IMG/VR virus record: IMGVR_UViG_3300031555_002663
Span: 1 to 64,000 of that record
DNA from: a virus
Lineage: Duplodnaviria; Caudoviricetes
DNA: 64,000 bases
Direction: 5' to 3' (one strand)
Part shown: in pieces, positions 15,568 through 28,374 of the stretch
Position numbering within the stretch: the stretch's first letter is position 1
Layout: every line of letters begins with the position of its first letter
Translations under genes and position numbers: made by a program
The notes under the pieces: generated by a model
Seen by the model: only the letters and a program-made list of their open reading frames with translations
Databases searched by the model: none
What the model was told of the DNA's origin: nothing

Positions 15568-15766
15568 CCGATCGGCGCCCATCTCTTTTTTTATATAATA
15601 ACATATTTTTTATTTTATGTCAAATCCGAGCGCATATGGCGAACCGATCGGCCCCCGCCCAGTGGAGGAGCTAAGATGAGGACCGATCGGCCTTTCGGGA
15701 AAAACTGGGCGCATATGTCGGAGGCGCTAGAAGTCTCGAAATTTTTGCATATGGATACCCGATCGG
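15568..15766. repeat. cluster of CCGATCGG and GCATATG palindromes
   Basis: CCGATCGG at 15568, 15644, 15683, 15759 (also 14854); GCATATG at 15632, 15711, 15747. Confidence 0.75.
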
Positions 15767-15872
15767 AAAATCGGGCCCTGCCTGCCGTCGAGGGCCCGCC
15801 GTATCCCTGTCTTAATTATACCACAAGTCGGACCATTTGTCAATAGGTATTTTCAACAAAAAAATCGCTCAA

Positions 15873-16058
15873 TTAAGAGCGATTTTCGGCAATCATTTTG
15901 TTCACTTCGTCAAGGGTCAAGTGCTGGTTACAACCCCAGCAAGCCATGTCCCCGCCCTCGCAGATGTCACAATCGGCACCAATGCAGGGCTTTGGAGTAT
16001 TTACCGCATAATGCGGATTGCGGACACAGTCCGCGCAAACGCAACCTTTACATCCCAT
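15873..16058 (-). CDS. small Cys-rich protein
   Basis: MGCKGCVCADC...; GGAGG RBS. Confidence 0.55.
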   Translation of the reverse strand: MGCKGCVCADCVRNPHYAVNTPKPCIGADCDICEGGDMACWGCNQHLTLDEVNKMIAENRS

Positions 16059-16254
16059 AGACCTTTGCCTCCAATCTCGGCTTCCATTCTTCCCACAGGG
16101 TAATGAGTTCGGCTTCTTTGTCCCAATCATTAACCTCTGCCATTGCAAATTCTAATGCTCCGAACGCCTGAGCAAGGAAGTTCTGACCGCCTTCGGGATA
16201 CTGCTCGATGCTCTGCTCTTTGCGTTCCCAGTATTTAATCAGTTTCTCTTTCAT
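16048..16254 (-). CDS. hypothetical protein
   Basis: Start refined to MKEKLIKY after AAAGGTGAT. Confidence 0.6.
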   Translation of the reverse strand: MKEKLIKYWERKEQSIEQYPEGGQNFLAQAFGALEFAMAEVNDWDKEAELITLWEEWKPRLEAKVYGM

Positions 16255-16327
16255 GGTATCACCTTTCCTTTCTGATACTATTATACCGCAAAAGGGGCGA
16301 TTTGTCAACCCCTTTTGCGAAAGTTTT

Positions 16328-16933
16328 TTAGAAAGGTAACTCGTGAGTTTCTGCAGCGTACTCGCAAGCAATGTTCATGTATTCCTCGGTAATAGAAGGA
16401 ATGTCAAGGAAAGAACGGCTTGCCATGTAGTCTGCCATGTGTACACAGCGGTCAATGTTGGTGGAAGGTCGGTCTTCCTTGTTAGTAGACCACTGACCCA
16501 TGTGAGCCTTCATTGCATCAAGCAGGTATTCGCTCGGTGCATAGTCGGTGTAATGGGTGCAGTACATCATGAAAGCATAGGCGGCATTTGCGGCGTGGTC
16601 TTTGTACTGGGTCTTGTCGTACTCGCCTAAACCATACTTTTGAGTGTCGTGCATGATGCAAGCGGCAATCACATAGTCCTTGTGTTCGGGCTTCATGTAT
16701 GCGTAACTGCTCATTCGCAGAAGTTCCTCGGCGAACATGACCACGGCTTTAGTGTGGCGAACCAGACCGCCCATGCCCTGAGAAAATGCAGGGTGATATT
16801 TGCCACTACTGGAAGCACCGTCCGTCCAGAAGTAGTCGGGTACAGCTTCTTCCATGTAGCCTTTGACAGCCATGCGAAGGTCTTCATTTACGATGAGGTC
16901 GATTTCTCTTTCAAACAGCTTGATAGTTTTCAT
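16328..16933 (-). CDS. HD-domain phosphohydrolase
   Basis: SSSGKYHP...GGLVRHT, MHD (HD), HMG, VHMADY motifs. Confidence 0.8.
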   Translation of the reverse strand: MKTIKLFEREIDLIVNEDLRMAVKGYMEEAVPDYFWTDGASSSGKYHPAFSQGMGGLVRHTKAVVMFAEELLRMSSYAYMKPEHKDYVIAACIMHDTQKYGLGEYDKTQYKDHAANAAYAFMMYCTHYTDYAPSEYLLDAMKAHMGQWSTNKEDRPSTNIDRCVHMADYMASRSFLDIPSITEEYMNIACEYAAETHELPF

Positions 16934-17173
16934 TTTGCGGTGTCCTTTCTTTTAGAGCTCCTGCTCTCTTGATTACATACTTATTATACCACCGTTTCGG
17001 GATTTTGTCAACACCTTTTGGAAAAATATTTTTCGGAAATTTTTTTTCTAAAACCCTTGACAAATCGAAATTCCGCCCGGACGCCTGTGTGCGGGCGGCT
17101 CAAGCCAATAGGCAAAATGCACAAAAAAAGAGCCGACCCTAAAAAGGGTGGCTCTTGTGAGAGGGAGAGGGGC

Positions 17174-17545
17174 TTACTCCGCAAGGGAGAAGTAAGCCTT
17201 TCTCTTGTCCTCAGTGCGGACAACGATGCCATCGTCCTTCATCTGGCGAAGCAGAGCGGACACTCTCTGGTTGCTGAGTTCAGCACACTCAGGGATTTCC
17301 TTCTGGATTTCGGTCACAGTGTAAAGGCGGTTGGGTTCCATACCCTCAGCGATAGCGGTCTTAATGCCCTCGTTGGCAGTCTGCTGAGCGGTAGGCTTTT
17401 TCTCAGCGGAGTTCTTGCGGTTGAGCAACTCAACCTCGTGGTCGATGAAGGCGATAACCTCATCGTAGTTGTCTGCGGTTGCAGGGTAAGCCGCACGGAT
17501 AATTGCGAAGTAGTCCTTCTTAGTCATCTTCTTAGTATTAGCCAT
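17174..17545 (-). CDS. winged-helix DNA-binding protein, paralog family A copy 1
   Basis: Start refined to MANTKK after AAAGGA; C-terminus LYTVTEI...LSNQRVSALLRQMKDDGIVVRTEDKRKAYF. Confidence 0.7.
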   Translation of the reverse strand: MANTKKMTKKDYFAIIRAAYPATADNYDEVIAFIDHEVELLNRKNSAEKKPTAQQTANEGIKTAIAEGMEPNRLYTVTEIQKEIPECAELSNQRVSALLRQMKDDGIVVRTEDKRKAYFSLAE

Positions 17546-17644
17546 AGTATCAAATCCTTTCTGGTTTTCTAAGGGTTTTCCTTCCCTTACTGTACTTACA
17601 TTATACCATACTTCTAAGGGTTTGTCAAGGGGTTTCGCAAACTT

Positions 17645-17862
17645 TTTTTCTCGACTTACTGCGTCCATTAGACGTTTCACTTCATCATGTCTATCACTCT
17701 TGCCGTTGGCGAAGTGCCACATTGTGGTGTTTCCCATTGGCTCAGATAGTCCGCCCGATAGTTACTGCGTGTAGTCGCCTTACTGCGGAATAAGTGGCTT
17801 ACTTCCTCTACTAACCGAAGTGTGCACCCCTCGGCTTTCTTGGGCTACCGCCCCTTGACTAT
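17645..17862 (-). ncRNA. candidate structured ncRNA 1 (about 215 nt)
   Basis: Own promoter 17867-17895, multiple hairpins, three CGCAGTAA copies, no RBS-backed ORF. Confidence 0.5.
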
Positions 17863-17919
17863 CTTTATTGTACCACAAACCTTTCGGTTTGTCAATACCT
17901 TTTTCAAAACTTTTTGAAA

Positions 17920-18090
17920 AAGTTTTGGCTTGTGTATCCTGCGTATCCACGACATTTTTTCAGCCTGCGTGGTCTGGTTCACATTTGTATACCGCAAACA
18001 GGAACACCTTGCGGTCGGGTCTTGGGGAATCGGTCTTACTGACTCACACGGGTCACACCTTTTTGGCTTTGCCATTCCCTCGCCTTTTGT
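17920..18090 (-). ncRNA. candidate structured ncRNA 2 (about 170 nt)
   Basis: Own promoter 18097-18125; stems GGGAAT/ATTCCC, ACCGCAA/TTGCGGT, CCACG/CGTGG. Confidence 0.45.
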
Positions 18091-18452
18091 ATCTTTATTA
18101 TACCACATCGGGAGCGGATTGTCAAGACCTTTTTCAAACTTTTTTCAAGTTTTTTCATCTTGCCTTTTGGCGGCTAGCCCCTCTCCCTTGGGACAATTAT
18201 AGTATACTACATTGAATGCAGTTTGTCAATAGTTTTGGGAAAAATAATTTCTTTTTTTATTTTCGCAAAACCCCTTGACAAAATGGCTGGCGGCATGGTA
18301 TAATAAAAATTCGGCCCAGCGCGCTCGTCGCCGGGCCGCCAATTATACCACATCAGCTTGCATTTGTCAATAGTTTTTTGAAAAAAAATAAATTTTGTGC
18401 AAAAAAGAGAAAAAATCTCCGATTTCTCGGAGATTTTTGTAAGATTTGCCGA

Positions 18453-18851
18453 TTATTTCGGCTTTCTTTTCTGCACAAGGGTCAATTCATAGGCATTTTC
18501 ACCAATTTTGAAAGCAATTTGGCGTTCTTTGTTGGTGATTTCGACATTTTCGCAAGCATTTTCGCTGTTTTCGGTCAAAAACTTGGCAAGTTCGGCAATG
18601 ATAGAGCCTTTTGTGGGGTTTTCCTTTCGGCTACGCTGTCCACCTGTGTTGTCTAACTTGTAGACGGGAGGGGTTTTGCGTGTCCCTGCGTTCCTTGCTT
18701 TTTTGCTTGCTTTTTCCTGTTCGGGAGAGAGTTCAAAGAGTTTTGCACCTTTGTCAATCTGTTCATCACACTTGATTACATCGTCAATCTCTTCCTGTGT
18801 GAAGCCTAAACTACGCATGGCTTCAATCTGCGACTTTTCAACTTTTGCCAA
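18453..18851 (-). CDS. hypothetical protein, paralog family B copy 1
   Basis: 132 aa; QIEAMRSLG...DKGAKLFEL...KKAR...VYKLDN shared with 20741-21127. Confidence 0.7.
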   Translation of the reverse strand: MAKVEKSQIEAMRSLGFTQEEIDDVIKCDEQIDKGAKLFELSPEQEKASKKARNAGTRKTPPVYKLDNTGGQRSRKENPTKGSIIAELAKFLTENSENACENVEITNKERQIAFKIGENAYELTLVQKRKPK

Positions 18852-18970
18852 AGCGTCATCCCCTTTCCTTGATTACATACTAATTATACCACATCAAAGG
18901 CGATTTGTCAATAGGTTTTGCAAAAAAGTTTTTGGAGAGAGGGAGAAATTTCTCCCTCTCTCTGTTAGGC

Positions 18971-19330
18971 TCACGCCTTGGAGAAATACGCCTTACGCTT
19001 CTCCTCAGTACGAACCACCTTGCCGTCATCCTTGAGCTGACGCATCAGAGCAGAAACACGCTGATTGGACAACTCGGCACACTCGGCAACTTCTTTCTGA
19101 ATTTCGGTTACGGTGTACAGACGGTTAGGCTCCATGGCTTCCAGAATGGCTTCCTTGATACCCTCGTTGGCAGTCTGCTGGGCAGTCGGCTTCTTTTCAG
19201 AGGCGTTCTTCTTCGCCAACAGTTCCAGTTCATGGTCGATGAACTCCACCAACATCTCATTACCTGCAACCTCGGGGATAACCTTGAGCATCTCGAACTT
19301 CTCACGCTTCGTAATCTTCTTCATAGTCAT
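18971..19330 (-). CDS. winged-helix DNA-binding protein, family A copy 2
   Basis: FIDHELELL..KNASEKKPTAQQTANEG...LSNQRVSALMRQL. Confidence 0.75.
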   Translation of the reverse strand: MTMKKITKREKFEMLKVIPEVAGNEMLVEFIDHELELLAKKNASEKKPTAQQTANEGIKEAILEAMEPNRLYTVTEIQKEVAECAELSNQRVSALMRQLKDDGKVVRTEEKRKAYFSKA

Positions 19331-19749
19331 AGTATCAACTTCCTTTCTTGCGTTGGTCGCAACCCTTATTGTATCTTTATTATACCATACTCGGTTGAGT
19401 TTGTCAAGAGGTTTTTTGAAATTTCCTAAAGTTTTTTTCTTTCGGCTCTTGACTTTCTTTCCCTTTCTGTATCTTTATTATACCATACTCGGTTAGGTTT
19501 GTCAATACCTTTTTGAAAACTTTTTGAAATTTTTTTCTGACCTCTTGGAGTTCCTCTCCCTTGGTACATTATTATTATACCACCACTCCCCCACATTGTC
19601 AACACTTTTGGGAAAAATAAAAAAATAAAAATTTTCGCAAAAACTCTTGACAAAATTTGTGCCGCGTGGTATAATGGTGAATTCGGCGCCCATCGACCGT
19701 GGGCGCCGCGCCAAAGTCAATAGGCAAATTGCACAAAAAGCAAAATCCC

Positions 19750-20232
19750 TTAAAGGGATTTGCTTTCAGAAACGAAATACTTTCCGTTGTGCTTTTCGAT
19801 GAAGTTTTTGATGATAGTGCTTTCAGCCTGAGTGTGAGAGTAGAAGTCAACTTCGTAATACTTTACAATGTCATTGTACTTGTAACCAATGTCGTTGACC
19901 TTGCCCCACTCTTTCAACTCGGCAATCAAATTATCGTCGTGCTTGAAAGTGGTTTCAATCTTCCACAACTTGTCTTTGCGTGCCTTTTCCTCGCCCCACT
20001 TGACAAGGAACACGCCGACCACATTACACACAAAAGTGATAATACATTTCTGCCACATAGGGAAATCGGCAACCGTGTAAATCATCATAATGTTATAAAA
20101 TGCGAAATAGCCACCAGAAATCAGACTTGCCGCAATCTTACTGCCGTTAATGGTTACGATGGAGCGAATAGTGGAGAATACCACATTCACAATGGAAAGT
20201 CCGACAAACACCAACAAAAATTCGTAGTTCAT
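19750..20232 (-). CDS. membrane protein, possibly DUF2179/UPF0316-like
   Basis: Three N-terminal TM segments (STIRSIVTINGSKIAASL) and a soluble C-terminal domain. Confidence 0.55.
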   Translation of the reverse strand: MNYEFLLVFVGLSIVNVVFSTIRSIVTINGSKIAASLISGGYFAFYNIMMIYTVADFPMWQKCIITFVCNVVGVFLVKWGEEKARKDKLWKIETTFKHDDNLIAELKEWGKVNDIGYKYNDIVKYYEVDFYSHTQAESTIIKNFIEKHNGKYFVSESKSL

Positions 20233-20331
20233 AGTATCAACTCTCTTTCTTACTTTCTATAATTATTATAACATAATTTTAATGATTTGTCAATAGGTAA
20301 ATGCTAAATTATTTGTTTTTTTCTCTTCCTT

Positions 20332-20490
20332 TTAAGCAAGGAAGAGAAATTTAGCCAAATAGGCAAAAGCCATGATTTCAATGCCGAACCACACCATTAA
20401 GCCACCACAATCACTGTCGATAGCCTTTACAAATTGTGCAGATAACTGAAATACAAAGATAATTAAAATAACAAGATTAAAACTATTCAT
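20332..20490 (-). CDS. small membrane protein (52 aa)
   Basis: Manual translation MNSFNLVILIIFVFQL...; own promoter upstream. Confidence 0.45.
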   Translation of the reverse strand: MNSFNLVILIIFVFQLSAQFVKAIDSDCGGLMVWFGIEIMAFAYLAKFLFLA

Positions 20491-20740
20491 AACTCATTTC
20501 CCCTTTCTGTAATTACATTATACACCCACTACTGGAAACTGTCAAGGGTTTTAGGAAAAAAAGTTTTTTAATTTATTTTACATTTTTCTCTTGACAAATT
20601 GCGTGGACTGGGGTATAATTAAAATTCCGGCCGCAACGTGCGTGAGCGGCCGGCCAATTTTACCACATTCATTTGGATTTGTCAATAGGCAAAATGCACA
20701 AAATTTTCATTTGGTAAAATTGCACAAAAAAAATGCCCCC

Positions 20741-21127
20741 TCAAGAGCGGGGGGCACTCAACACGATTTTGTACTTTTTGCCGTTCCAGTCGAACACAAA
20801 TTCACGTTCAGGGTTCAGCACTTCAAGGCTTTTGCAGTCGGCTTGGTCGCTGATGGTCTTGGTCAACAGTTCAATCAAACCGCCCTTGACATCATCTGCC
20901 TTTTTATTGCGCTTTCCTTTGGAATTGTCCAGACTGTAAACAGTGGGTTTGCGCTCGGCTTGTCTTGCCTTCTTTGCGCCCTTTTCTAACTCTGGGGGCA
21001 ACTCGAACAGCTTTTCGCCTCGGTCAATGCGCTTGTCATCTTCCAAAACCTGTTTGATTTCTTCCTCGGTCATTCCGAGATTTCGCATGGCTTGAATTTG
21101 CTTTTCATTACTTGCCATCTTCATCAC
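20741..21127 (-). CDS. hypothetical protein, family B copy 2
   Basis: Paralogous to 18453-18851. Confidence 0.7.
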   Translation of the reverse strand: MMKMASNEKQIQAMRNLGMTEEEIKQVLEDDKRIDRGEKLFELPPELEKGAKKARQAERKPTVYSLDNSKGKRNKKADDVKGGLIELLTKTISDQADCKSLEVLNPEREFVFDWNGKKYKIVLSAPRS

Positions 21128-21211
21128 CTGTCCTTTCTGTACTTATAGTATAGCACAAGGTGGAAGGTTTGTCAAGGGGTTTTTTGAAAAACCCCTTGAC
21201 TTTTTCCTTCA

Positions 21212-21574
21212 TCAGATAGCCTTGAAGTAAGCCTTGCGCTTATCTTCAATTCTCTCAACCTTGCCGTCATCCTTCATCTGACGAAGCAGAGCAGATACAC
21301 GCTGGTTAGACAGTTCTGCCATACCCTCGCAGTTCTTCTGAATGTCGGTAACGGTCATCATCTCGCCGCTTTCAGCAAGGAAGTCATAGATGGTGTCCTT
21401 CAGACCTTCATTTGCCACCTGCTGTGCAGTGGGCTTCTTCTCGCTTGCGTTCTTCTTGGCAAGCAGGTCGAGTTCGTGGTCGATGAATTCGACAAGCATT
21501 TCGTTTGCGGAAACTTCGGGGATAGCCTTCAGCATTTCAAACTTTTCTCTCTTAGTCATCTTCTTGTTCATCAT
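21212..21574 (-). CDS. winged-helix DNA-binding protein, family A copy 3
   Basis: Paralogous to 17174-17545 and 18971-19330. Confidence 0.75.
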   Translation of the reverse strand: MMNKKMTKREKFEMLKAIPEVSANEMLVEFIDHELDLLAKKNASEKKPTAQQVANEGLKDTIYDFLAESGEMMTVTDIQKNCEGMAELSNQRVSALLRQMKDDGKVERIEDKRKAYFKAI

Positions 21575-21812
21575 AGTATCATTCTCCTATCTCGTGTTAG
21601 GTCACGACCCATTTTTTTATCTGTAAGAGGCTTCCCTCTTTACATTCTTATTATACCATACTTGGTGAGGTTTGTCAAGGGGTTTTTCAAACTTTTTTAA
21701 AGTTTTTTTCTTGGAGGTTTTGTTTCTCTCTCCCTCTCACTGTAATCATTATACCACAGTGAGAGGGGTTTGTCAAGAGGTTTTTAAAAAGTTTTTTGAA
21801 AAACTTTTCAGA

Positions 21813-22472
21813 TTAGAAACGGCACTTTACATTGTTAAAGCGGTAGGGAGTGTCGCCCTTGTGTGCATTTCGAGTGAATTTGCGGTGAGTGTTCCAAACT
21901 GCACGCAGGATTTCAACTTCGATTTCGCAGTCAGCGAGAGCGGTGTGTTCTTCGACAAACTCAATCTCTCCGCTGATGAAACGATAGCAAATTTCAGCGG
22001 ACATCTGAATGTTGCCCTTTGCAGTTACAAAGCCATTTTCGGCACAGAATTTGTTATACTTTGCATACTGTCCGATAGTTTCAAAGAAAGCGAGCCAGGT
22101 GTCAACAAATTCCATTCCCTCAATGCACTCTGCAACGAAAGTCTTGTTGAAGTCAAAGCCAGAGTTGTGAGCGCAGGCGCAGGAAACATCGTTGGAAGTA
22201 AGCCAGTTGGAAAAGATTTCCTTTGCTTCATCTTCATTGTAGCAAATGACAGTTGCAGGGTTCTTGAGCAAGTCACGGTAATAATCTTTCTTATACTTGC
22301 CATAGAAAGCACTATCGAGCATTAAGTTGCCGATAACTACAATGTCAATGCGGTCAATTTCGCCCCTCTTGGAGAGGGCAATGCCAGCGCAGTGGTAGGT
22401 AGGGCAATGAGCCTGAGCCGCACCGCCGAGGGTTTCAGTATCAATTACAGCAAAAATCTTTTCCTTAAACAT
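21813..22472 (-). CDS. DEDDh (DnaQ-like) 3'-5' exonuclease
   Basis: VIDTET, AHNSGFD, EEHTALAD motifs; start refined to MFKEK. Confidence 0.8.
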   Translation of the reverse strand: MFKEKIFAVIDTETLGGAAQAHCPTYHCAGIALSKRGEIDRIDIVVIGNLMLDSAFYGKYKKDYYRDLLKNPATVICYNEDEAKEIFSNWLTSNDVSCACAHNSGFDFNKTFVAECIEGMEFVDTWLAFFETIGQYAKYNKFCAENGFVTAKGNIQMSAEICYRFISGEIEFVEEHTALADCEIEVEILRAVWNTHRKFTRNAHKGDTPYRFNNVKCRF

Positions 22473-22920
22473 GGTATCAAATCCTTTCAAATTAGTGATT
22501 GAGGTTTGCCATCGCTCTCTCAACCTTACATACTTATTATACCACAGGTCGGTCGGTTTGTCAAGAGGTTTTTTGAAAGTTTTTTAATTTTTTTTTCTAA
22601 CCTCTTGGAACTCCGTTCCCTTACCTTGTATACTTATTATACACCCAACGGCTGAAAATGTCAAGGGTTTTGGGAAAAATAATTATTAAAAAAATTTTCG
22701 TAAAAAGTCTTGACAAATTGCGTGGGAAGTGGTATAATAGAAAATTCGGCGCGCCACAATCGTCCGCGCGCCGCCGAAATTTGTCAATACCTTTTTTGAA
22801 ATTTGTGCAAAATGACGAAAATCCCAACCCGAAATGGATTGGGATTTTCATCAAGAAAGAGAGAGGGAAGGGGGTGGAAAATAGTGGGATGGGGCTGATT
22901 AGCTCAACCCCCGAGAAGCC

Positions 22921-23175
22921 TTACCAGCAGATGGTGTAATTGCCGAAACTGCTGTGAACAGTGAAACCGCTCTGCTCAAGGTAAGCCTTAAGGAAAGTCC
23001 ATTCAATGTTCCTTGTCTTTGTAAAAGTGGCTTCTCTCCTGCCGTGCTTTGCGGCATCTTCAAGGGCAGGTCCGATGACTTCTTCTGCATACGCCATTGC
23101 CCTATTCATCTTTGCAGTTTCACGCTCACCCTGTATCTGTGTAGCGACTGCTTCTAACTCTTTTGCATTTTTCAT
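22921..23175 (-). CDS. hypothetical protein
   Basis: 84 aa with own promoter and RBS. Confidence 0.65.
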   Translation of the reverse strand: MKNAKELEAVATQIQGERETAKMNRAMAYAEEVIGPALEDAAKHGRREATFTKTRNIEWTFLKAYLEQSGFTVHSSFGNYTICW

Positions 23176-23230
23176 GGTATCAACTCCTTGTCCTTTTGTA
23201 CCTTAATTATACCACATGAGGAGGGGTTTG

Positions 23231-23536
23231 TCAACCCCTTTCCTCAAATTCTTTGAGAATTTTTGCGGCTTCGGCGATTGCCTGCTTGAAACGACCTGAC
23301 AGCTCATGCTCTCCGCAACAGTCCATTTCATCAGCAATGTGTTCTTTTACTTTGTTCAGCTCATCGCCAAACTGAGTGGCGTACTTGGCAAAGCAGACGC
23401 AGGGCATGGAGCCGATTTTGTCAACATAGATTTCCAGTGCTTCGCCCTCGCGGATGCCACACTGTCTGCGGATTTCCTTGGGGATTACAACTCTGCCGAG
23501 GTCATCAACACGGCGAATAATTCCAGTAGCTTTCAT
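23231..23536 (-). CDS. AbrB/SpoVT-family transcriptional regulator
   Basis: N-terminus MKATGIIRRVDDLGRVVIPKEIRRQCGIREGEALEIYV. Confidence 0.85.
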   Translation of the reverse strand: MKATGIIRRVDDLGRVVIPKEIRRQCGIREGEALEIYVDKIGSMPCVCFAKYATQFGDELNKVKEHIADEMDCCGEHELSGRFKQAIAEAAKILKEFEERG

Positions 23537-23613
23537 AGTATCAATTCCTTTCTTGTTTGTGTCTTAATTATACCACATTTCGGGAGGTTTGTCAAGGGGT
23601 TTTTTGGAAGTTC

Positions 23614-24060
23614 TCAAAGATTTTTGAGAACTTCCATGATGTTCTGCACATCGTAGGCTCTGCCCGTCCAGTTGTCACGGTTCTTTGCTTCATCGTCAAA
23701 GAGAATGTCAAGAGGATTTTCGCAGAAGTTCTGCTTCGGTGTACCGTAAGGGACGATTGTAATTCTATCCCAATTCACAGAGGGAAGATGTTCGGCAAGC
23801 CAACGCATTTTTGCTTCGGTGACTGCTTCGTTATAGGCTTCGCTTCCACTCTTGGAAAGCCAAGAGATAACAGCGATTTCATAACCTGCTCTCTGGAGTG
23901 CGTTTAACTTACGAGCCAGAGTGCAAAGGCGAAGCAGAGGATTTGCGTTTGCGTAGGGGAATACATCTTCATTGATAAGGTATTCGAGCCAGTTTTCAAC
24001 GCCGTAAAGGTCAGCAATCGTGCCGTCCATGTCAAAGTTAATAGTAATGTTCATCTTCAT
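23614..24060 (-). CDS. HAD-superfamily phosphatase (5'-nucleotidase-like)
   Basis: FDMDGTIAD motif I, ISW, LFDDE motif IV. Confidence 0.75.
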   Translation of the reverse strand: MKMNITINFDMDGTIADLYGVENWLEYLINEDVFPYANANPLLRLCTLARKLNALQRAGYEIAVISWLSKSGSEAYNEAVTEAKMRWLAEHLPSVNWDRITIVPYGTPKQNFCENPLDILFDDEAKNRDNWTGRAYDVQNIMEVLKNL

Positions 24061-24130
24061 AGTATCAATTCCTTTCCTTACTTTCTATAATTATTATACC
24101 ACCGATTGACCGATTTGTCAAGGGGTTTTC

Positions 24131-24562
24131 TTAAATTTCTTTCTGAAATTTTACCCAAGTTTCGTAGTAGTCTTTTTCTACGCTCTTGGAATAGCCTTCT
24201 TTCTGGTAGCCTTCTTCAATGAACTTGTGCATTTTGTAGTCAAATTTCATTGCCCATTTACGCAGATGCAGAGGGGCTTTTCTCCATAGGTTACTGTAAC
24301 CCCAATCCATGCAGTAGTAAAAAGCATTATCTTCTTCGACCCATTCGAGAATGTAGGGCAGAACATGGTCAAGCACCTTGCAAGCGGTTTCTTCGCTCCA
24401 CTCTCTACGATTGTAAGCCCATTCAGATGCCTTGTCGTAAGCAACCACAAAGGGAATGAGGGGTAGTGCCCAGATGTAATAGCTGTACTTTTTGCCGTGG
24501 ATTACATACCACTTTCTTTTGGATTTATTCTCTCTTGTCTTTGCGTATTCAAAATCTTTCAT
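24131..24562 (-). CDS. hypothetical protein with one TM segment
   Basis: 143 aa, own promoter. Confidence 0.65.
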   Translation of the reverse strand: MKDFEYAKTRENKSKRKWYVIHGKKYSYYIWALPLIPFVVAYDKASEWAYNRREWSEETACKVLDHVLPYILEWVEEDNAFYYCMDWGYSNLWRKAPLHLRKWAMKFDYKMHKFIEEGYQKEGYSKSVEKDYYETWVKFQKEI

Positions 24563-24781
24563 GTTTGTTTCTCCCTTCCTTTACTGTATCTATAGTATAC
24601 CATACCCGCCCGCATTTGTCAATAGTTTTAGGAAAAATAATTATTTTATTTTTTTTTGATTTTTCTCTTGACAAAATGTGCAGGCTGTGGTATAATGGAA
24701 ATAACGCGCGCCTGGGTCGTGGGCGCGCGGCCGAAAAAGAAAAACCGCCCCCATTTCGGGAGCGGTTTCTGCAAGGGGAAA

Positions 24782-25030
24782 TCAAATTCCCCAAGCAGTC
24801 ATCATCATCCAACCCAGAATCATCATCGTCCATTCCTCGGTGATGTAATCCTCTTCGGCGTTGGCGGTTACATAGACCTCACCAGTGTAGCCATCGACCA
24901 CATCAACGGGAGCGCCGTTGGTTGCGTGTTCCATCAGAGCACAGATGGCAACATCAGCGGAGTTGGTGGCAACAGTAATGTCGCAGTCCTCGTAGTGAGC
25001 AGTTACATAGTAAGCAGAAGTGTTCATCAT
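24782..25030 (-). CDS. hypothetical protein
   Basis: Start refined to MMNTSAYY after AAAGGA. Confidence 0.6.
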   Translation of the reverse strand: MMNTSAYYVTAHYEDCDITVATNSADVAICALMEHATNGAPVDVVDGYTGEVYVTANAEEDYITEEWTMMILGWMMMTAWGI

Positions 25031-25109
25031 AGTATCAAATCCTTTCCTTTTTTGTATCTTAATTATAGCACAGAGCAGATGATTTGTCAAGGGGTTTGGA
25101 GAAGATTTT

Positions 25110-25328
25110 TCAATCTTCTCCGACACAACTTCTACAAAAGATGTTACCCTCTTCGTCAATCATTGCAGAAGGAAGAATCATCGAGCTGTCACAGCACTGG
25201 CATCTGACAATCATCGGCAGGTCATTGGCGAAGAACCATTCGCCGTTAATCTGTCCCTTCGGCATTTCTACGCCGATGTTTTTCTTAATCCACTTTTCAG
25301 CGGTGAGAATCTTTTTAGTGTTAGCCAT
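25110..25328 (-). CDS. small zinc-finger protein
   Basis: MANTKK...CQCC...CRSC. Confidence 0.6.
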   Translation of the reverse strand: MANTKKILTAEKWIKKNIGVEMPKGQINGEWFFANDLPMIVRCQCCDSSMILPSAMIDEEGNIFCRSCVGED

Positions 25329-25418
25329 GGTATCAATTCCTTTCCTGTTTTCTGATACTATTATACCATACTCTGAGCAGTTTGTCAATAGGTTTTTGAA
25401 AAGTTTTTAATTGGCTCT

Positions 25419-25835
25419 TTAGAAAGAGCCAATCTGTGTGATGCCTTGGTCTTTCAACCATTCGCAGAACTGGTCGGCAGGAAGTAAGTCAACAAGGTCT
25501 TTCATGGTGTACCATCTGGTCACTTCCATCTTTTCCCATTTCACACGAATAGGCTCAAAAGTCTTTTCAGTGAGTTCAGTGTTGTTTCTTTCAATGTCGC
25601 CCCAGTGAATTTCAATGGTAGGACGACCACGAAACAGAGTGAAACCAGTTTCGGCATTTCTAATCATGTTGCGTTCAATCGCTTCACATGCTTCGGCAAA
25701 TGTGCCGTAGTAGTATTCTGTACTGTTGGAACTACCTTCCATTTCAATGTAGCGAATGTGGCTCCAGATGGAAGTGTCACAGAAGTCGCTGTTTCCGATT
25801 GCTACGGAACATCTAAGGTCAATAAGTTTTTTCAT
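25419..25835 (-). CDS. hypothetical protein
   Basis: 138 aa with own promoter and RBS. Confidence 0.65.
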   Translation of the reverse strand: MKKLIDLRCSVAIGNSDFCDTSIWSHIRYIEMEGSSNSTEYYYGTFAEACEAIERNMIRNAETGFTLFRGRPTIEIHWGDIERNNTELTEKTFEPIRVKWEKMEVTRWYTMKDLVDLLPADQFCEWLKDQGITQIGSF

Positions 25836-25895
25836 AGTATCAATTCCTTTCTCTCTTGCTTTCTGTAATTATTATACCACACATTAGGGGCTTTG

Positions 25896-26222
25896 TCAAC
25901 CCCTAATTGTGAAAAGTTCGGGATGTCTTTTGCAATTTTTAGTGATGCGTTTTTCCATGCGAGGGGACATTTGCCCTTTACCTGCCATTCTGTACAGTTT
26001 GTATCCCTGAGATACTGTTGCCATGAATGCAGTAATTACAATGTCACGATACAGATTCTTTACTACGATAATTCCGCTACTGGTCAGAATGTATCTTTTT
26101 TCTTCTTCAACTACTGCAACTTCGAGAACTGCATTGGTGAAGCCGAGGACTTCTTCGAGAGCCTGCAGGCGGTTTGCTCTTTCTACTCCTGCGTGGAAGG
26201 TGGTGTTGTGGATGGTAGTCAT
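25896..26222 (-). CDS. hypothetical protein
   Basis: Start refined to MTTIHNTTFHAGVER. Confidence 0.6.
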   Translation of the reverse strand: MTTIHNTTFHAGVERANRLQALEEVLGFTNAVLEVAVVEEEKRYILTSSGIIVVKNLYRDIVITAFMATVSQGYKLYRMAGKGQMSPRMEKRITKNCKRHPELFTIRG

Positions 26223-26292
26223 TGTATCAAGTCCTTTCTTGTTTCCCTTTGTTGTATTTATTATACCACGGAGAAGGGGTTTTGTCAACCCC

Positions 26293-26646
26293 TTATTTGA
26301 AAAATTCTCCGTAATTTTTTCTGTTTTTTCCACACTTGAAAGCGCACAGACCGAGTTCGCACAGCTGATTGTAGAAGGGGTCTTCGTAAGGAACTTTGAA
26401 CCATTCAGTTTTCTTGCCGTCAATGGTAGCAACTACCATTTCATAACCCATTTTGACGATTTCCTTGTGGAACAGACCTTCCACAAAATGCTTGCTCTTT
26501 TCCATGGTCTTTACATAGCTAATGCAACGGACTTCGGGGTTGTGTGTAGTGTAAGCATTGAAGCGGTTTGCAAGGTCGCTTGCAAAACCAGCCTTGAACA
26601 GGGCGTAGTTCTTCTTTTCATCCATCATCAGATACACAGAATTCAT
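26293..26646 (-). CDS. GIY-YIG-like (T5orf172/MUG113-type) nuclease
   Basis: VYLM...FKAGFASDLANRF...YTTHNP...E..FH...EWF pattern. Confidence 0.55.
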   Translation of the reverse strand: MNSVYLMMDEKKNYALFKAGFASDLANRFNAYTTHNPEVRCISYVKTMEKSKHFVEGLFHKEIVKMGYEMVVATIDGKKTEWFKVPYEDPFYNQLCELGLCAFKCGKNRKNYGEFFK

Positions 26647-26745
26647 TTTAATTTACCTCTTTCTTTCTCTTGTTGTTTTCCCTTGTTGTTGTATTTATTA
26701 TAGCATGGAAGGGGCTGTTTGTCAACCCCTTTTTTCAATTTTGTT

Positions 26746-26916
26746 TTAATTATTTTCAGCAAATTCAGTAAGCATTACAAATGCATTGTATTCACTGTGT
26801 ACAGGATTGGGCATGGTGTTGTCTGCGACGATGTCTACCCAACTGGCTACAAGCCACAACATGAACAACACATTTACTAAACACCACAATCTACCTAACC
26901 ACTTCATCATTGTCAT
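26746..26916 (-). CDS. small membrane protein (about 56 aa)
   Basis: Manual translation MTMMKWLGRLWCLVNVLFMLWLVASWVDI... Confidence 0.5.
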   Translation of the reverse strand: MTMMKWLGRLWCLVNVLFMLWLVASWVDIVADNTMPNPVHSEYNAFVMLTEFAENN

Positions 26917-27094
26917 CATCTCCCTTTCTTTAATACTATTATAGCATTACGGGAGATTGTTGTCAATAGTTTTTTTACAACTTTTTTTAGTTTTTTTACT
27001 GTAGCACTTTAGCGCGCTAAAGCTAGGGCTCCAGCGGCCCTGCTCGGCGCCAACGGCACACAAAGAAAAAGAGAGGGCTTTCACCCTCTCTTGA

Positions 27095-27424
27095 TTAAGG
27101 CATGATGTGCTTAACACAGATGACTTCTTGGCAATCATCACACACCCAATAGTATTTATCTCCACCATTCTTTACATGGTCAGCACTCTTGAACTCCCAC
27201 GCCTGTCCGCACTCATGGCATACGCCATTGTTCCACGCCTTCTCGTCGTGTGCGCTCTCTGCCCACATCACACCTGTCATGAGGAGACCGAAGGCCACAG
27301 CCACAAGCACACCTACCACACCACGCACCCACGGCTTGCTGTTGTCCATGTTGCTGGTTACCATGAGGGAGAAGAAGCTCCCCACGATGCTACATACTAC
27401 TACGCTAAAGATGAATACTCCCAT
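27095..27424 (-). CDS. membrane protein with C-terminal zinc ribbon
   Basis: Two TM segments, CHEC and CDDC. Confidence 0.65.
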   Translation of the reverse strand: MGVFIFSVVVCSIVGSFFSLMVTSNMDNSKPWVRGVVGVLVAVAFGLLMTGVMWAESAHDEKAWNNGVCHECGQAWEFKSADHVKNGGDKYYWVCDDCQEVICVKHIMP

Positions 27425-27539
27425 TGTTCCTACCTCTTTCTTTGTGTTGTTCTTTCCTTTACTGTACCTTTATTATACCACACTACTGGTTATTTGTCAA
27501 GGGGTTTACACAAAGTTTTTTGCACAAATTAAGAGAGGC

Positions 27540-27935
27540 TCAATGAGCCTCTCTCCATACCTTTACAATGATGTCGTCCTCTGTATTGTTAGGTGTGTGG
27601 TTGTCTGCTATCCACAAGAGCAAGAAGTCATCAGCCTGCACAGGCTCTTCGATGTACCACACATCGCCTGTCTCATCCTCTACCAGCTGACGCTCGTACT
27701 GCCATGCCCCCACCATGCGGATGGTGCCATCGCTGAAGTCCCCGCACCAGTTATCCTCGATGATAGAGGTATCAAAACCCCCGCTCTGCTCTACCACAGG
27801 AGCCTCTACGGCAGATGCCTGCACAGGAGTTATTGCCTGCATGAACAGAACTACAGCGAACAGAAACGCTACAGCACCAAGTGCCATGCCAATGCTCAAG
27901 GTTACATCTCTCAAAGTCTTCTTCATAGTTATCAT
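27540..27935 (-). CDS. membrane-anchored or secreted protein
   Basis: N-terminal hydrophobic segment followed by an acidic domain. Confidence 0.65.
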   Translation of the reverse strand: MITMKKTLRDVTLSIGMALGAVAFLFAVVLFMQAITPVQASAVEAPVVEQSGGFDTSIIEDNWCGDFSDGTIRMVGAWQYERQLVEDETGDVWYIEEPVQADDFLLLWIADNHTPNNTEDDIIVKVWREAH

Positions 27936-28374
27936 TTCCTTTCCTCTTTGTTGATACTATTATACCATGCTACTGGCTTGTTGTCAATAGGTTTGTGCAA
28001 ATTATTTTGGGAATTTTTTAAGTTTGTCAGATTGCACAAAAATTTGTCGAGAAGTTTGTGCAGACTGCCAATTGCGTAAAACTCGGCTCGCCACGTCCGG
28101 CGCCGAGCCGAGCAATTGCTAGGGGTGGTAGATTGTTCTTACTGTCGCTGCTTCTGGAAAGCTGGCAATACTTTTTGTATAGGGATGTGGGGGGTGTATT
28201 TCAGGGAAAAAAATTTTTTTTCTTGTTGATTTGTTTTGCTCTGGGCACAACTATCCTGTAGACCATTTTCGATTTCGGATTACGGAGTTCAGAATAGACG
28301 AAGGACCCACCCCCATCCCTATTTCCGGGATTTTTAGGGAGTGGGTCCCATACTACCAGGTTTGTGTATATTAA

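Follow-up and report, generated by a model that had tools for sequence, protein, structure and literature searches.

Repeated units in which a consensus promoter points backward, against the genes, and runs into a short GC-rich hairpin may well be transcription-boundary cassettes of the phage early region, a reading that we hold with moderate confidence from sequence analysis. In the direction of the genes, such a unit would begin with the normal intrinsic terminator of the gene, followed by a 25–27 nt GC hairpin that together with an A/T-rich tract could act as a back-up terminator, and then by a perfect host sigmaA-type promoter, which points backward and overlaps the A/T-rich tract. We infer that the promoter fires and the hairpin acts as a terminator; read-through polymerase would then run head-on into host RNA polymerase that sits at the backward promoter or is leaving it. 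As the promoter-to-stem spacing is rigid, any backward transcript is predicted to start 0–3 nt before the hairpin, so that the product would be an antisense RNA that opens with a hairpin. Overall, each early block would be fenced off from the next. We favour this reading because the only perfect GC hairpins of the 74 kb sit in the early region, because the units combine an antisense rule, a rigid geometry, a selected structure, adjacency to terminators and T-richness in gene direction, and because the hairpin persists in copies without a promoter, with a better T-tract.

The window, which is the whole stretch of DNA analysed, comprises the first 64 kb of a 73,984-bp uncultured gut phage record with an estimated completeness of only 38%. 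The whole record was scanned for perfect stems of at least 6 bp with at least 85% G+C and loops of 3–16 nt, and only 8 matches were found, all between 15772 and 24729 and none elsewhere in the 74 kb. Seven of them are hairpins pointed out in an earlier note on this DNA, and the eighth is an ordinary terminator (20734–20756). The perfect 9-bp stem of hairpin 28082–28112 is absent from the scan because its G+C content (78%) is below the filter. A covariance model trained on 50 relatives of 27 nt recovered all eight window hairpins on the plus strand. The three that were among the training sequences (18312, 20627 and 22747; hairpins are named by their first position) scored 43–52 bits (E 1e-9 to 1.5e-12) and the other five had E values of 0.0003–0.02, while the minus-strand reading of the same hairpins gave only about 10 bits. 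From the scan and the model, eight of the nine hairpins named by the earlier note are genuine and form a single, strand-specific family. The ninth, a proposed degenerate copy at 27007–27050, is unsupported as a member, with no covariance-model match and a folding no better than that of shuffles (z −0.2). Stem sequence varies from copy to copy and length is constant at 25–27 nt, except for the 31 nt of hairpin 28082. No Rfam family matched at the gathering threshold over the whole window, and sub-threshold matches fell only at ordinary terminators or other intergenic stretches, none of them on a GC hairpin.

Table 1. Positions of promoters, GC hairpins and terminators in the window (model, covariance model).
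Feature	Position	Strand	Remarks
GC hairpin, 27 nt, without backward promoter	15772–15798	+	model E 0.02
GC hairpin, 26 nt (17073–17098), with promoter remnant	17050–17098	+	model E 0.01
Backward consensus promoter	18275–18304	+	12/12 with extended −10; −10 ends 7 nt before hairpin 18312
GC hairpin, 27 nt, face-to-face type	18312–18338	+	perfect stem; model E 1e-9
Sense promoter facing hairpin 18312	18370–18342	−	−10 ends 3 nt from stem
Terminator of gene 18851–18453	18411–18438	−	A/T tracts on both sides
Backward consensus promoter	19647–19675	+	12/12; −10 ends 8 nt before stem
GC hairpin, 25 nt, 9-bp stem, 7-nt loop	19684–19708	+	model E 0.0026
Backward consensus promoter	20591–20619	+	12/12; −10 ends 7 nt before stem
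GC hairpin, 27 nt, face-to-face type	20627–20653	+	model E 1.5e-12
Sense promoter facing hairpin 20627, −10 TAAAAT	20685–20657	−	3 nt from stem
Backward consensus promoter	22710–22738	+	12/12; −10 ends 8 nt before stem
GC hairpin, 27 nt	22747–22773	+	scan and model match
Backward consensus promoter	24668–24696	+	12/12; −10 ends 8 nt before stem
GC hairpin, 25 nt, abutting T-tract of terminator of gene 25030–24782	24705–24729	+	scan and model match
Ordinary intrinsic terminator of upstream gene	24740–24770	−	directly precedes hairpin 24705 in gene direction
Hairpin, 31 nt (9-bp stem, 13-nt loop), without promoter	28082–28112	+	model E 0.001

The five plus-strand promoters that had been reported against gene orientation all proved to be full consensus matches, with distances of 7, 8, 7, 8 and 8 nt from the end of the −10 box to the stem. 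Downstream of them, the window has no ORF preceded by a ribosome-binding site, and all window units are oriented toward the plus-strand late region beginning near 31.3 kb. An upstream motif occurs at fixed positions relative to the promoter (AT-rich upstream region), and conservation between copies extends to the spacer of the backward promoters. Within 12.6 kb, consensus promoters number 34 (minus strand) and 5 (plus strand), gene-less tandem copies included. The second promoters described as facing hairpins 18312 and 20627 from just past the stem were both located on the minus strand. The predicted start site of the promoter at 18342–18370 is inside the stem, because its −10 box ends so near to it. 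Across the family, a sense promoter faces the hairpin at 2–4 nt in 42 of 120 units, and at this distance the polymerase footprints of both promoters must overlap, so that an RNA polymerase trap formed by colliding promoters, as once suggested for these sites, is possible from the layout.

Individual units differ in what surrounds them. The antisense RNA predicted for unit 18312 folds with a z of −3.5, and the terminator at 18411–18438 would end it at about 135 nt. After hairpin 19684 comes what is left of a sense −35 box, together with its upstream motif. In the orthologues of hairpin 20627 in three IMG/VR loci (L125–L127), the stem is kept and the loop is variable. Promoter and hairpin of unit 22747 are identical to those of L126 at 70 of 72 positions, while the adjoining protein is only 83% identical. 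The orthologue of hairpin 24705 in L001 (7575–7599) has genes on both sides that differ from those of the window. In the promoter remnant of element 17050–17098, a −35 box is almost directly fused to the AAATT linker without a −10 box, a junction type also seen in about 20 of 74 promoter-less relatives. Hairpin 15772 lies about 10–37 nt into the transcript of a sense promoter (15843–15815) and heads a conserved non-coding locus with orthologues in L001, L095 and L124, and hairpin 28082 is located upstream of the first early promoter.

Among relatives, a large family with compensated stems was found: 126 distinct promoter-hairpin units across 65 IMG/VR loci, invariably antisense to the genes on both sides, from phages whose hosts are probably Clostridia. 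The −10 box ends 7–9 nt before the stem across the family and the commonest hairpin length is 27 nt, although the spacing statistics are partly built in, because the promoter pattern used to gather the loci itself sets some of the spacing. When promoters were chosen by promoter sequence alone, 59 of 108 were found with a perfect stem of at least 7 bp, compared with 1.5 in shuffles. Judged by purine skew, the downstream genes are on the opposite strand in 98 of 117 units and on the same strand in none, in contrast to the consensus promoters that lack a hairpin, most of which are sense (766 of 992). The promoter-hairpin cassette is more conserved than the genes that adjoin it.

The stems covary between copies and between orthologues, which bears out the suggested selection on structure. 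In the stem alignment, 99% of stem cells are Watson-Crick paired, both partners vary at 6 of 8 pairs, and double changes occur in 83 cells against 27.5 in shuffles; within subfamilies that have common flanks, four compensated stem variants were found. G.U pairs are almost absent (1 of 384 stem cells), and G-T and A-C mismatches stand at 5:7 without strand bias, which fits a helix that is needed on both strands. In the 11-nt loops, C, G, C and G are present at loop positions 3, 4, 7 and 8 in 74–86% of copies, and an inner helix within the loop is unsupported.

The flanks of the hairpin are asymmetric. Read with the genes, the 9-nt stretch past the hairpin has 3.0–4.0 T, often preceded by an AA step, a richness on a par with ordinary terminators (3.98); read in antisense direction, the corresponding stretch has 1.2–1.6 T, except where a promoter faces the hairpin. 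In 71 of 124 units a terminator for the gene direction begins no more than 60 nt away, and the most frequent distance is 9–13 nt. The placement of the elements just beyond gene terminators, which had been stated for each of them, holds for six of the eight window hairpins, with the terminator 10–60 nt beyond. In 74 promoter-less copies with large loops the hairpin is kept and the T-tract is better than in promoter-bearing copies, with at least 5 T after the hairpin in 31 of 74, as against 20 of 78 and 4 of 43 promoter-bearing copies. Several points count against the boundary cassette. Intrinsic terminators do not typically have loops of 7–15 nt or an AA step ahead of the T-run, and a plain terminator would have no need of the partly conserved loop positions. 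The need for insulation is not obvious where early genes each have their own strong promoter, and a strong backward promoter should also disturb the upstream gene, because most of the antisense RNAs have no terminator of their own.

The same anatomy could be read as a source of small RNAs, abundant, long-lived and shielded by a 5' hairpin, that would act in cis as antisense to the 3' end of the early mRNA preceding them, or in trans on targets in host or phage, which we consider rather doubtful. The consensus promoters, a stem beginning 0–3 nt after the predicted start, the partly conserved loop and a cassette conservation exceeding that of neighbouring genes speak for it, the predicted place of the hairpin fits a protected 5' end, and the window RNAs are predicted to consist of a 5' hairpin and a 3' terminator hairpin (z −2.4 to −5.6). 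However, no defined RNA body is conserved, because a terminator usable by the antisense RNA lies no further than 100 nt away in just 26 of 124 units, so that the small RNAs of 75–135 nt once proposed would be a local feature of the window and not one of the family. The interval between hairpin and terminator consists of promoter remnants and T/A tracts, hairpins persist without a promoter, G.U pairs show no excess on the promoter strand, and there is no match to an Rfam family. It is still less probable that the hairpin is a protein recognition site on nascent RNA or single-stranded DNA, for example a nut/put-like antitermination signal for plus-strand transcripts toward the late genes, or a priming site. 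A fixed size of 25–27 nt, semi-conserved loop bases and the common orientation toward the late region suit such a role, and a DNA hairpin would likewise agree with stems that are perfectly Watson-Crick paired and nearly free of G.U. However, the stem sequences vary so widely that a protein could recognise only the shape and a few bases of the loop; a Pfam scan gave no RNA-binding or antiterminator candidate among ten early proteins, a boxA-like companion motif was not seen, and the inner loop helix found no support. That the promoters are a polymerase sink, titrating host polymerase while the hairpin shortens a useless transcript, is very improbable. The region is saturated with consensus promoters, but titration needs no antisense orientation, gene-less sense promoters already exist, and the hairpin has no T-tract in antisense direction.

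Two further readings concern DNA exchange. The repeats might mainly be portable homology for module exchange, whatever their effect on transcription, as in the promoter-early stem-loop (PeSL) cassettes that do mediate shuffling (PMC2839356); we regard this as improbable. The window and L001 differ by heavy shuffling of their early genes, with unit 24705 and its L001 orthologue flanked by unrelated genes on both sides, the homology between the window and L126 stops at the −35 box of a backward promoter, and the spacer conservation points the same way. However, mapping of breakpoints, which had been proposed as a check, gave a weak enrichment: internal homology ends number 31 within 60 nt of hairpins (vs 21.6 ± 4.5) and show no excess within 120 nt, and homology-driven exchange leaves the antisense rule, the rigid spacing and the copy-specific compensated stems unexplained. 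The suggestion that the hairpins are attC-like folded-DNA recombination sites bounding mobile modules is hardly credible. They are intergenic, variable in sequence and at module borders, but their perfect stems have neither extrahelical bases nor R/L core sites, the link to breakpoints is weak, and a tyrosine recombinase (PF00589) has no match in this incomplete record.

Parts of these readings could be combined with the boundary cassette. As a speculative joint reading, to which we attach a low probability, the units would be polymerase-assisted insulators of an undescribed kind, with a loop-read opening factor and portable module junctions. Host polymerase would be held on a promoter whose first 27 transcribed bp form a hard-to-melt GC palindrome, and this head-on roadblock would take over part of the role of the U-tract against read-through. 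A phage or host factor would read the semi-conserved loop and set the time of opening, and the repeats would also serve as junctions for module exchange. If the boundary cassette is true, uncultured Firmicute phages of gut and rumen, a large group, order early transcription with a compact repeated element, in which a promoter is used for stopping transcription rather than for expression. A fixed-size GC hairpin with a backward consensus promoter would then be an element without description in searchable papers, and a natural, portable insulator for Gram-positive synthetic biology. The signature of promoter, AAATT and 27-nt GC hairpin could mark early regions and operon ends in metagenomic phage contigs.

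Several known systems share single features with these units. The Bacillus subtilis ermC and aprE leaders carry 5'-terminal stabiliser stem-loops on coding mRNAs. Here too a stable stem is within a few nt of the predicted 5' end and would be expected to block 5'-end-dependent decay, but no coding sequence follows, and the start is predicted from the −10 spacing. Convergent promoters near enough for interference, as in the subclass with a facing promoter, are known from coliphages 186 (pR/pL) and P2 (Pe/Pc), where they form single developmental switches with repressors and starts 35–62 bp apart. Unlike these, both promoters here are consensus, the predicted starts are about 22–24 bp apart across the hairpin, and the unit is repeated many times. 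Lambda OOP, which acts on cII, is one defined RNA of 77 nt and overlaps coding sequence. As in OOP and other 3'-overlapping cis-antisense RNAs, the promoter is just downstream of a phage gene and convergent with it, and the predicted RNA ends near the terminator of the gene; unlike OOP, there are many copies per genome, the 5' hairpin instead of an RNA body is the conserved part, and the antisense RNA usually has no terminator.

The closest known kind is the PeSL cassettes of phages RB49, phi1 and other T4-like myoviruses (Arbiol et al. 2010, PMC2839356; Comeau et al. 2014, PMC4122927), so that a related class is on record for elements that no feature class known to the earlier note would explain; no description of an antisense promoter-hairpin unit was found in the papers searchable. 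The PeSL stem-loop was shown to terminate transcription, the promoters are directed at the downstream gene and have the ribosome-binding site of that gene at their end, the stem-loops occupy five positions around the promoter, and antisense or convergent arrangements find no mention in these two papers (PMC2839356, PMC4122927). Genuine PeSL-like composites also occur in the window: there, a G-run/C-run hairpin has the −35 box of a sense promoter in its loop. Like PeSLs, the units described here combine, in repeated copies, a host early promoter of consensus type that has an AT-rich region upstream with a GC stem-loop physically joined to it, and they are placed between small variable genes of a hyperplastic region. 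Unlike PeSLs, the promoter points backward, away from the next gene, without a Shine-Dalgarno sequence or start codon at its 3' end, and the hosts are probably Clostridia instead of Gram-negative bacteria. Instead of five positions, the stem-loop has a single fixed place 7–9 nt after the −10 box.

The promoter-hairpin feature is genuine and widespread; it is specific to one strand, and selection acts on it. The same units, each a GC hairpin preceded by an antisense ("backward") consensus promoter and named here by hairpin start, are found in a relative represented by six contigs of IMG/VR, one early protein of which is 82% identical; the shared elements include orthologues of units 24705 and 19684 and of hairpin 15772. 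A search of IMG/VR, using as pattern the promoter plus the first five bases past the linker and nothing else, gave matches in more than 118 stretches, and 126 distinct promoter-hairpin units across 65 loci were counted among these matches. In 59 of 108 sequences, chosen on the promoter pattern alone, a perfect stem of 7 bp or more was detected at the expected place, compared with 1.5 in shuffles. The stem begins 7–9 nt past the end of the -10 box across units, and the hairpin is most often 27 nt long (50 units), followed by 24–25 nt and a minor mode of 36–38 nt. AAATT precedes the hairpin almost without exception, and CC, then A, follows it. Rfam gave no relevant match at gathering or permissive thresholds.

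The earlier note had suggested selection on hairpin structure, and this is borne out by 50 aligned 27-nt hairpins, in which six of eight stem pairs change on both sides and double-change cells number 83 against 27.5 in shuffles, as well as by subfamilies set by common flanks, which contain four stem variants with perfect compensation in each. Stem cells in this alignment are paired at 99%, a value that is partly circular because presence of a stem was a criterion in choosing the sequences; the range of compensated pairs is free of this circularity. Pairing is lost when the stem partner is shifted along. G.U pairs are found in 1 of 384 cells and the rare non-standard pairs are balanced (G-T 5 vs A-C 7), so the helix is kept Watson-Crick on both strands, and the wobble test therefore cannot name one acting strand. 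An inner mini-helix within the 11-nt loops was rejected, with pairing in just 17–28 of the 50 copies.

Fifty relatives of 27 nt each served to train a covariance model, which recovered on the + strand all eight hairpins listed in the earlier note, with E-values of 1e-9 to 1.5e-12 for 18312, 20627 and 22747, which are inside the training set, and 0.0003–0.02 for the other five. Read on the - strand, the same hairpins score only about 10 bits, indicating that the family is strand-specific via its flanks and loops. The five + strand promoters with a stem at 7–8 nt and the two facing - strand promoters at 3 nt from the stem are exactly as first described, while the supposed degenerate copy at 27007-27050 was missed by the model, folds like shuffled sequence and finds no support as a member of the family. 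Scanning the full record for GC stems with perfect pairing, we found eight, all within 15772-24729, of which seven are listed hairpins and one is a normal terminator. The hairpin at 28082-28112 has a perfect 9-bp stem of lower G+C, and a short palindromic repeat, CAATTGC, lies on both its flanks (28060-28125).

In bacterial genomes, a highly specific pattern gave no matches, and a general pattern found mainly host tRNA and rRNA promoters, with hairpins on phage-like contigs only. On bacterial MAG contigs (L132-L251), this promoter pattern marks tRNA/rRNA promoters of Clostridia (Oscillospiraceae, Ruminococcus and others), a hint both to the host clade and to mimicry of the promoters that are strongest in the host. 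No tRNA genes were found in the window. The source record, whose first 64 kb form the window, is a linear virus of 73,984 bp (CheckV completeness 38%), with no near-identical record among GenBank phages. On its + strand, from about 31.3 kb, lie genes for a portal, a terminase-like protein, a sigma factor and very large tail-type proteins; the portal is 30–51% identical to Enterococcus phages and to records of phages from the human gut. Between 15.4 and 28.0 kb, every gene is small and on the - strand, most with its own promoter, and promoters with at most one mismatch to TTGACA-17-TATAAT number 34 on the - strand vs 5 on the + strand. The early proteins scanned have ordinary phage early functions (HD domain, AbrB/MazE-like fold, 5' nucleotidase, T5orf172 and three winged-helix paralogues). 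A face-to-face promoter-hairpin unit closes each of the two winged-helix two-gene modules, and so those two units are not independent. Tandem consensus promoters without genes were also observed, 97–104 bp apart and ahead of one gene (e.g. 19602, 19505, 19407); none of the intervals between them contains an ORF with a ribosome-binding site, and Tandem Repeats Finder did not detect these spaced promoters.

Coordinates of features in the window and in related loci
Feature	Position	Strand
Winged-helix protein paralogues (three)	17174-17722, 18971-19330, 21212-21574	
Paralogous 128-132 aa genes, after two of the three winged-helix paralogues	18453-18851, 20741-21127	
TTGCACAAA motif or complement	18394, 19729, 20720, 22802, 27520, 27992, 28032, 30610	
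Tandem gene-less consensus promoters	19379-19602, 21650-21776, 22536-22664, 17867-18229	-
Conserved non-coding locus, window	15625-15810	-
Conserved non-coding locus, related locus L001	18700-18960	
Conserved non-coding locus, related locus L095	937-1216	
Conserved non-coding locus, related locus L124	4725-5004	
PeSL-like composite promoters	26725, 26288, 25899, 23234, 16308, 21175	-

Because long antisense ORFs make orientation by ORF coverage ambiguous, we used purine skew, which in this phage gives good separation of the coding strands (0.45 vs 0.54), together with a control set. Units are antisense to downstream genes in 98 of 117 cases and to upstream genes in 105 of 115, and none is sense, whereas hairpin-less consensus promoters of the same loci are sense in 766 of 992. 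Among 277 different GC hairpins in about 1 Mb of sequence, 120 have an antisense promoter at 6–11 nt, and 42 of these 120 also have a sense promoter whose -10 box ends 2–4 nt from the stem; 16 have a sense promoter only and 114 have neither. With a facing sense promoter so close, its start site should fall inside the stem and both polymerase footprints would have to overlap. In 71 of 124 units, the start of a gene-direction terminator is no more than 60 nt from the hairpin, with 9–13 nt the commonest distance.

Large-loop GC hairpins without a promoter, of the same size as those in units (n = 74), come in gene direction after the normal terminator's T-tract and a GG. Past the hairpin there is a stretch like ATTTT, which in many cases continues into a -35 box in reverse complement. 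Some 20 of the 74 resemble copies in which the promoter spacer and -10 box were removed between two AAATT repeats, for example hairpin 17073 in the window. In the 9 nt downstream in gene direction, T averages 3.96 for promoter-less hairpins, 3.98 for ordinary small-loop terminators, and 3.5 and 3.0 for promoter-bearing units, compared with 1.2–1.6 in the antisense direction. This points to a gene-direction termination role of the hairpin that is independent of the promoter, and in promoter-bearing units the poorer T-tract may be offset by bound polymerase.

In relatives, a 7-nt motif (TGCACAA or its complement) lies at fixed distances from the backward -35 box (-49, and -16 or -26), and the inverted pair is common to the backward promoter and the divergent sense promoter. 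Counting both the 9-mer TTGCACAAA and its complement, the window has 8 occurrences, compared with an expected 1.3. Since the inverted TTGCACAAA pair is fixed between divergent promoters in relatives, it is likely an operator or upstream promoter element. A 26-bp unit repeated twice (20677-20729), with a -35-like box and the TTGCACAAA motif, adjoins unit 20627. Separately, a conserved non-coding locus spans the ~190 nt after sense promoter 15843; it starts with the 27-nt hairpin, past which the palindromes CCGATCGG and CATATG occur three or four times, and is a candidate either for an array of sites bound by protein or for a structured RNA.

The reading we favour for the units is a transcription-boundary cassette, in which the hairpin would back up the normal terminator and the backward promoter would load host RNA polymerase head-on; our confidence in this function is evenly balanced against our doubt. 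A live competitor is that the units are a source of small RNAs, as the earlier note proposed. RNAs of 70–135 nt are indeed predicted in the window, but an antisense-usable terminator within 100 nt is present in only 26 of 124 units, so such tidy products are not general to the family. Alternatively, the hairpin may be a protein site; its both-strand Watson-Crick helix fits use as DNA or in both transcription directions.

The units as recombination cassettes are the other live explanation. Early gene order is strongly shuffled between the window and L001, and the L001 orthologue of unit 24705 is 83% identical over 119 nt with unrelated genes on both sides; unit 22747 matches another related locus, L126, at 70 of 72 positions, with homology ending at the -35 box on one side. 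The association of homology breakpoints with hairpins survives as a weak enrichment within 60 nt (31 vs 21.6 ± 4.5; 417 internal homology ends). The units may have a shuffling role like that of the promoter-early stem-loop (PeSL) cassettes of T4-type phages. The idea of attC-like sites found no support: the features of attC are missing, and the record, itself 38% complete, yielded no integrase. By inspection, we also rejected a CRISPR-repeat mimic, with stems too variable and no repeat-like 3' handle after them.

PeSL cassettes are the closest described kind (PMC2839356; PMC4122927). Real PeSL-like composites are likewise present in the window, where at six sense promoters the -35 box lies in the loop or one arm of a G-run/C-run hairpin that would terminate the preceding gene. 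Antisense arrangements are not mentioned in the two PeSL papers (PMC2839356, PMC4122927), where promoters face the next gene, while the units described here are antisense to their flanking genes.
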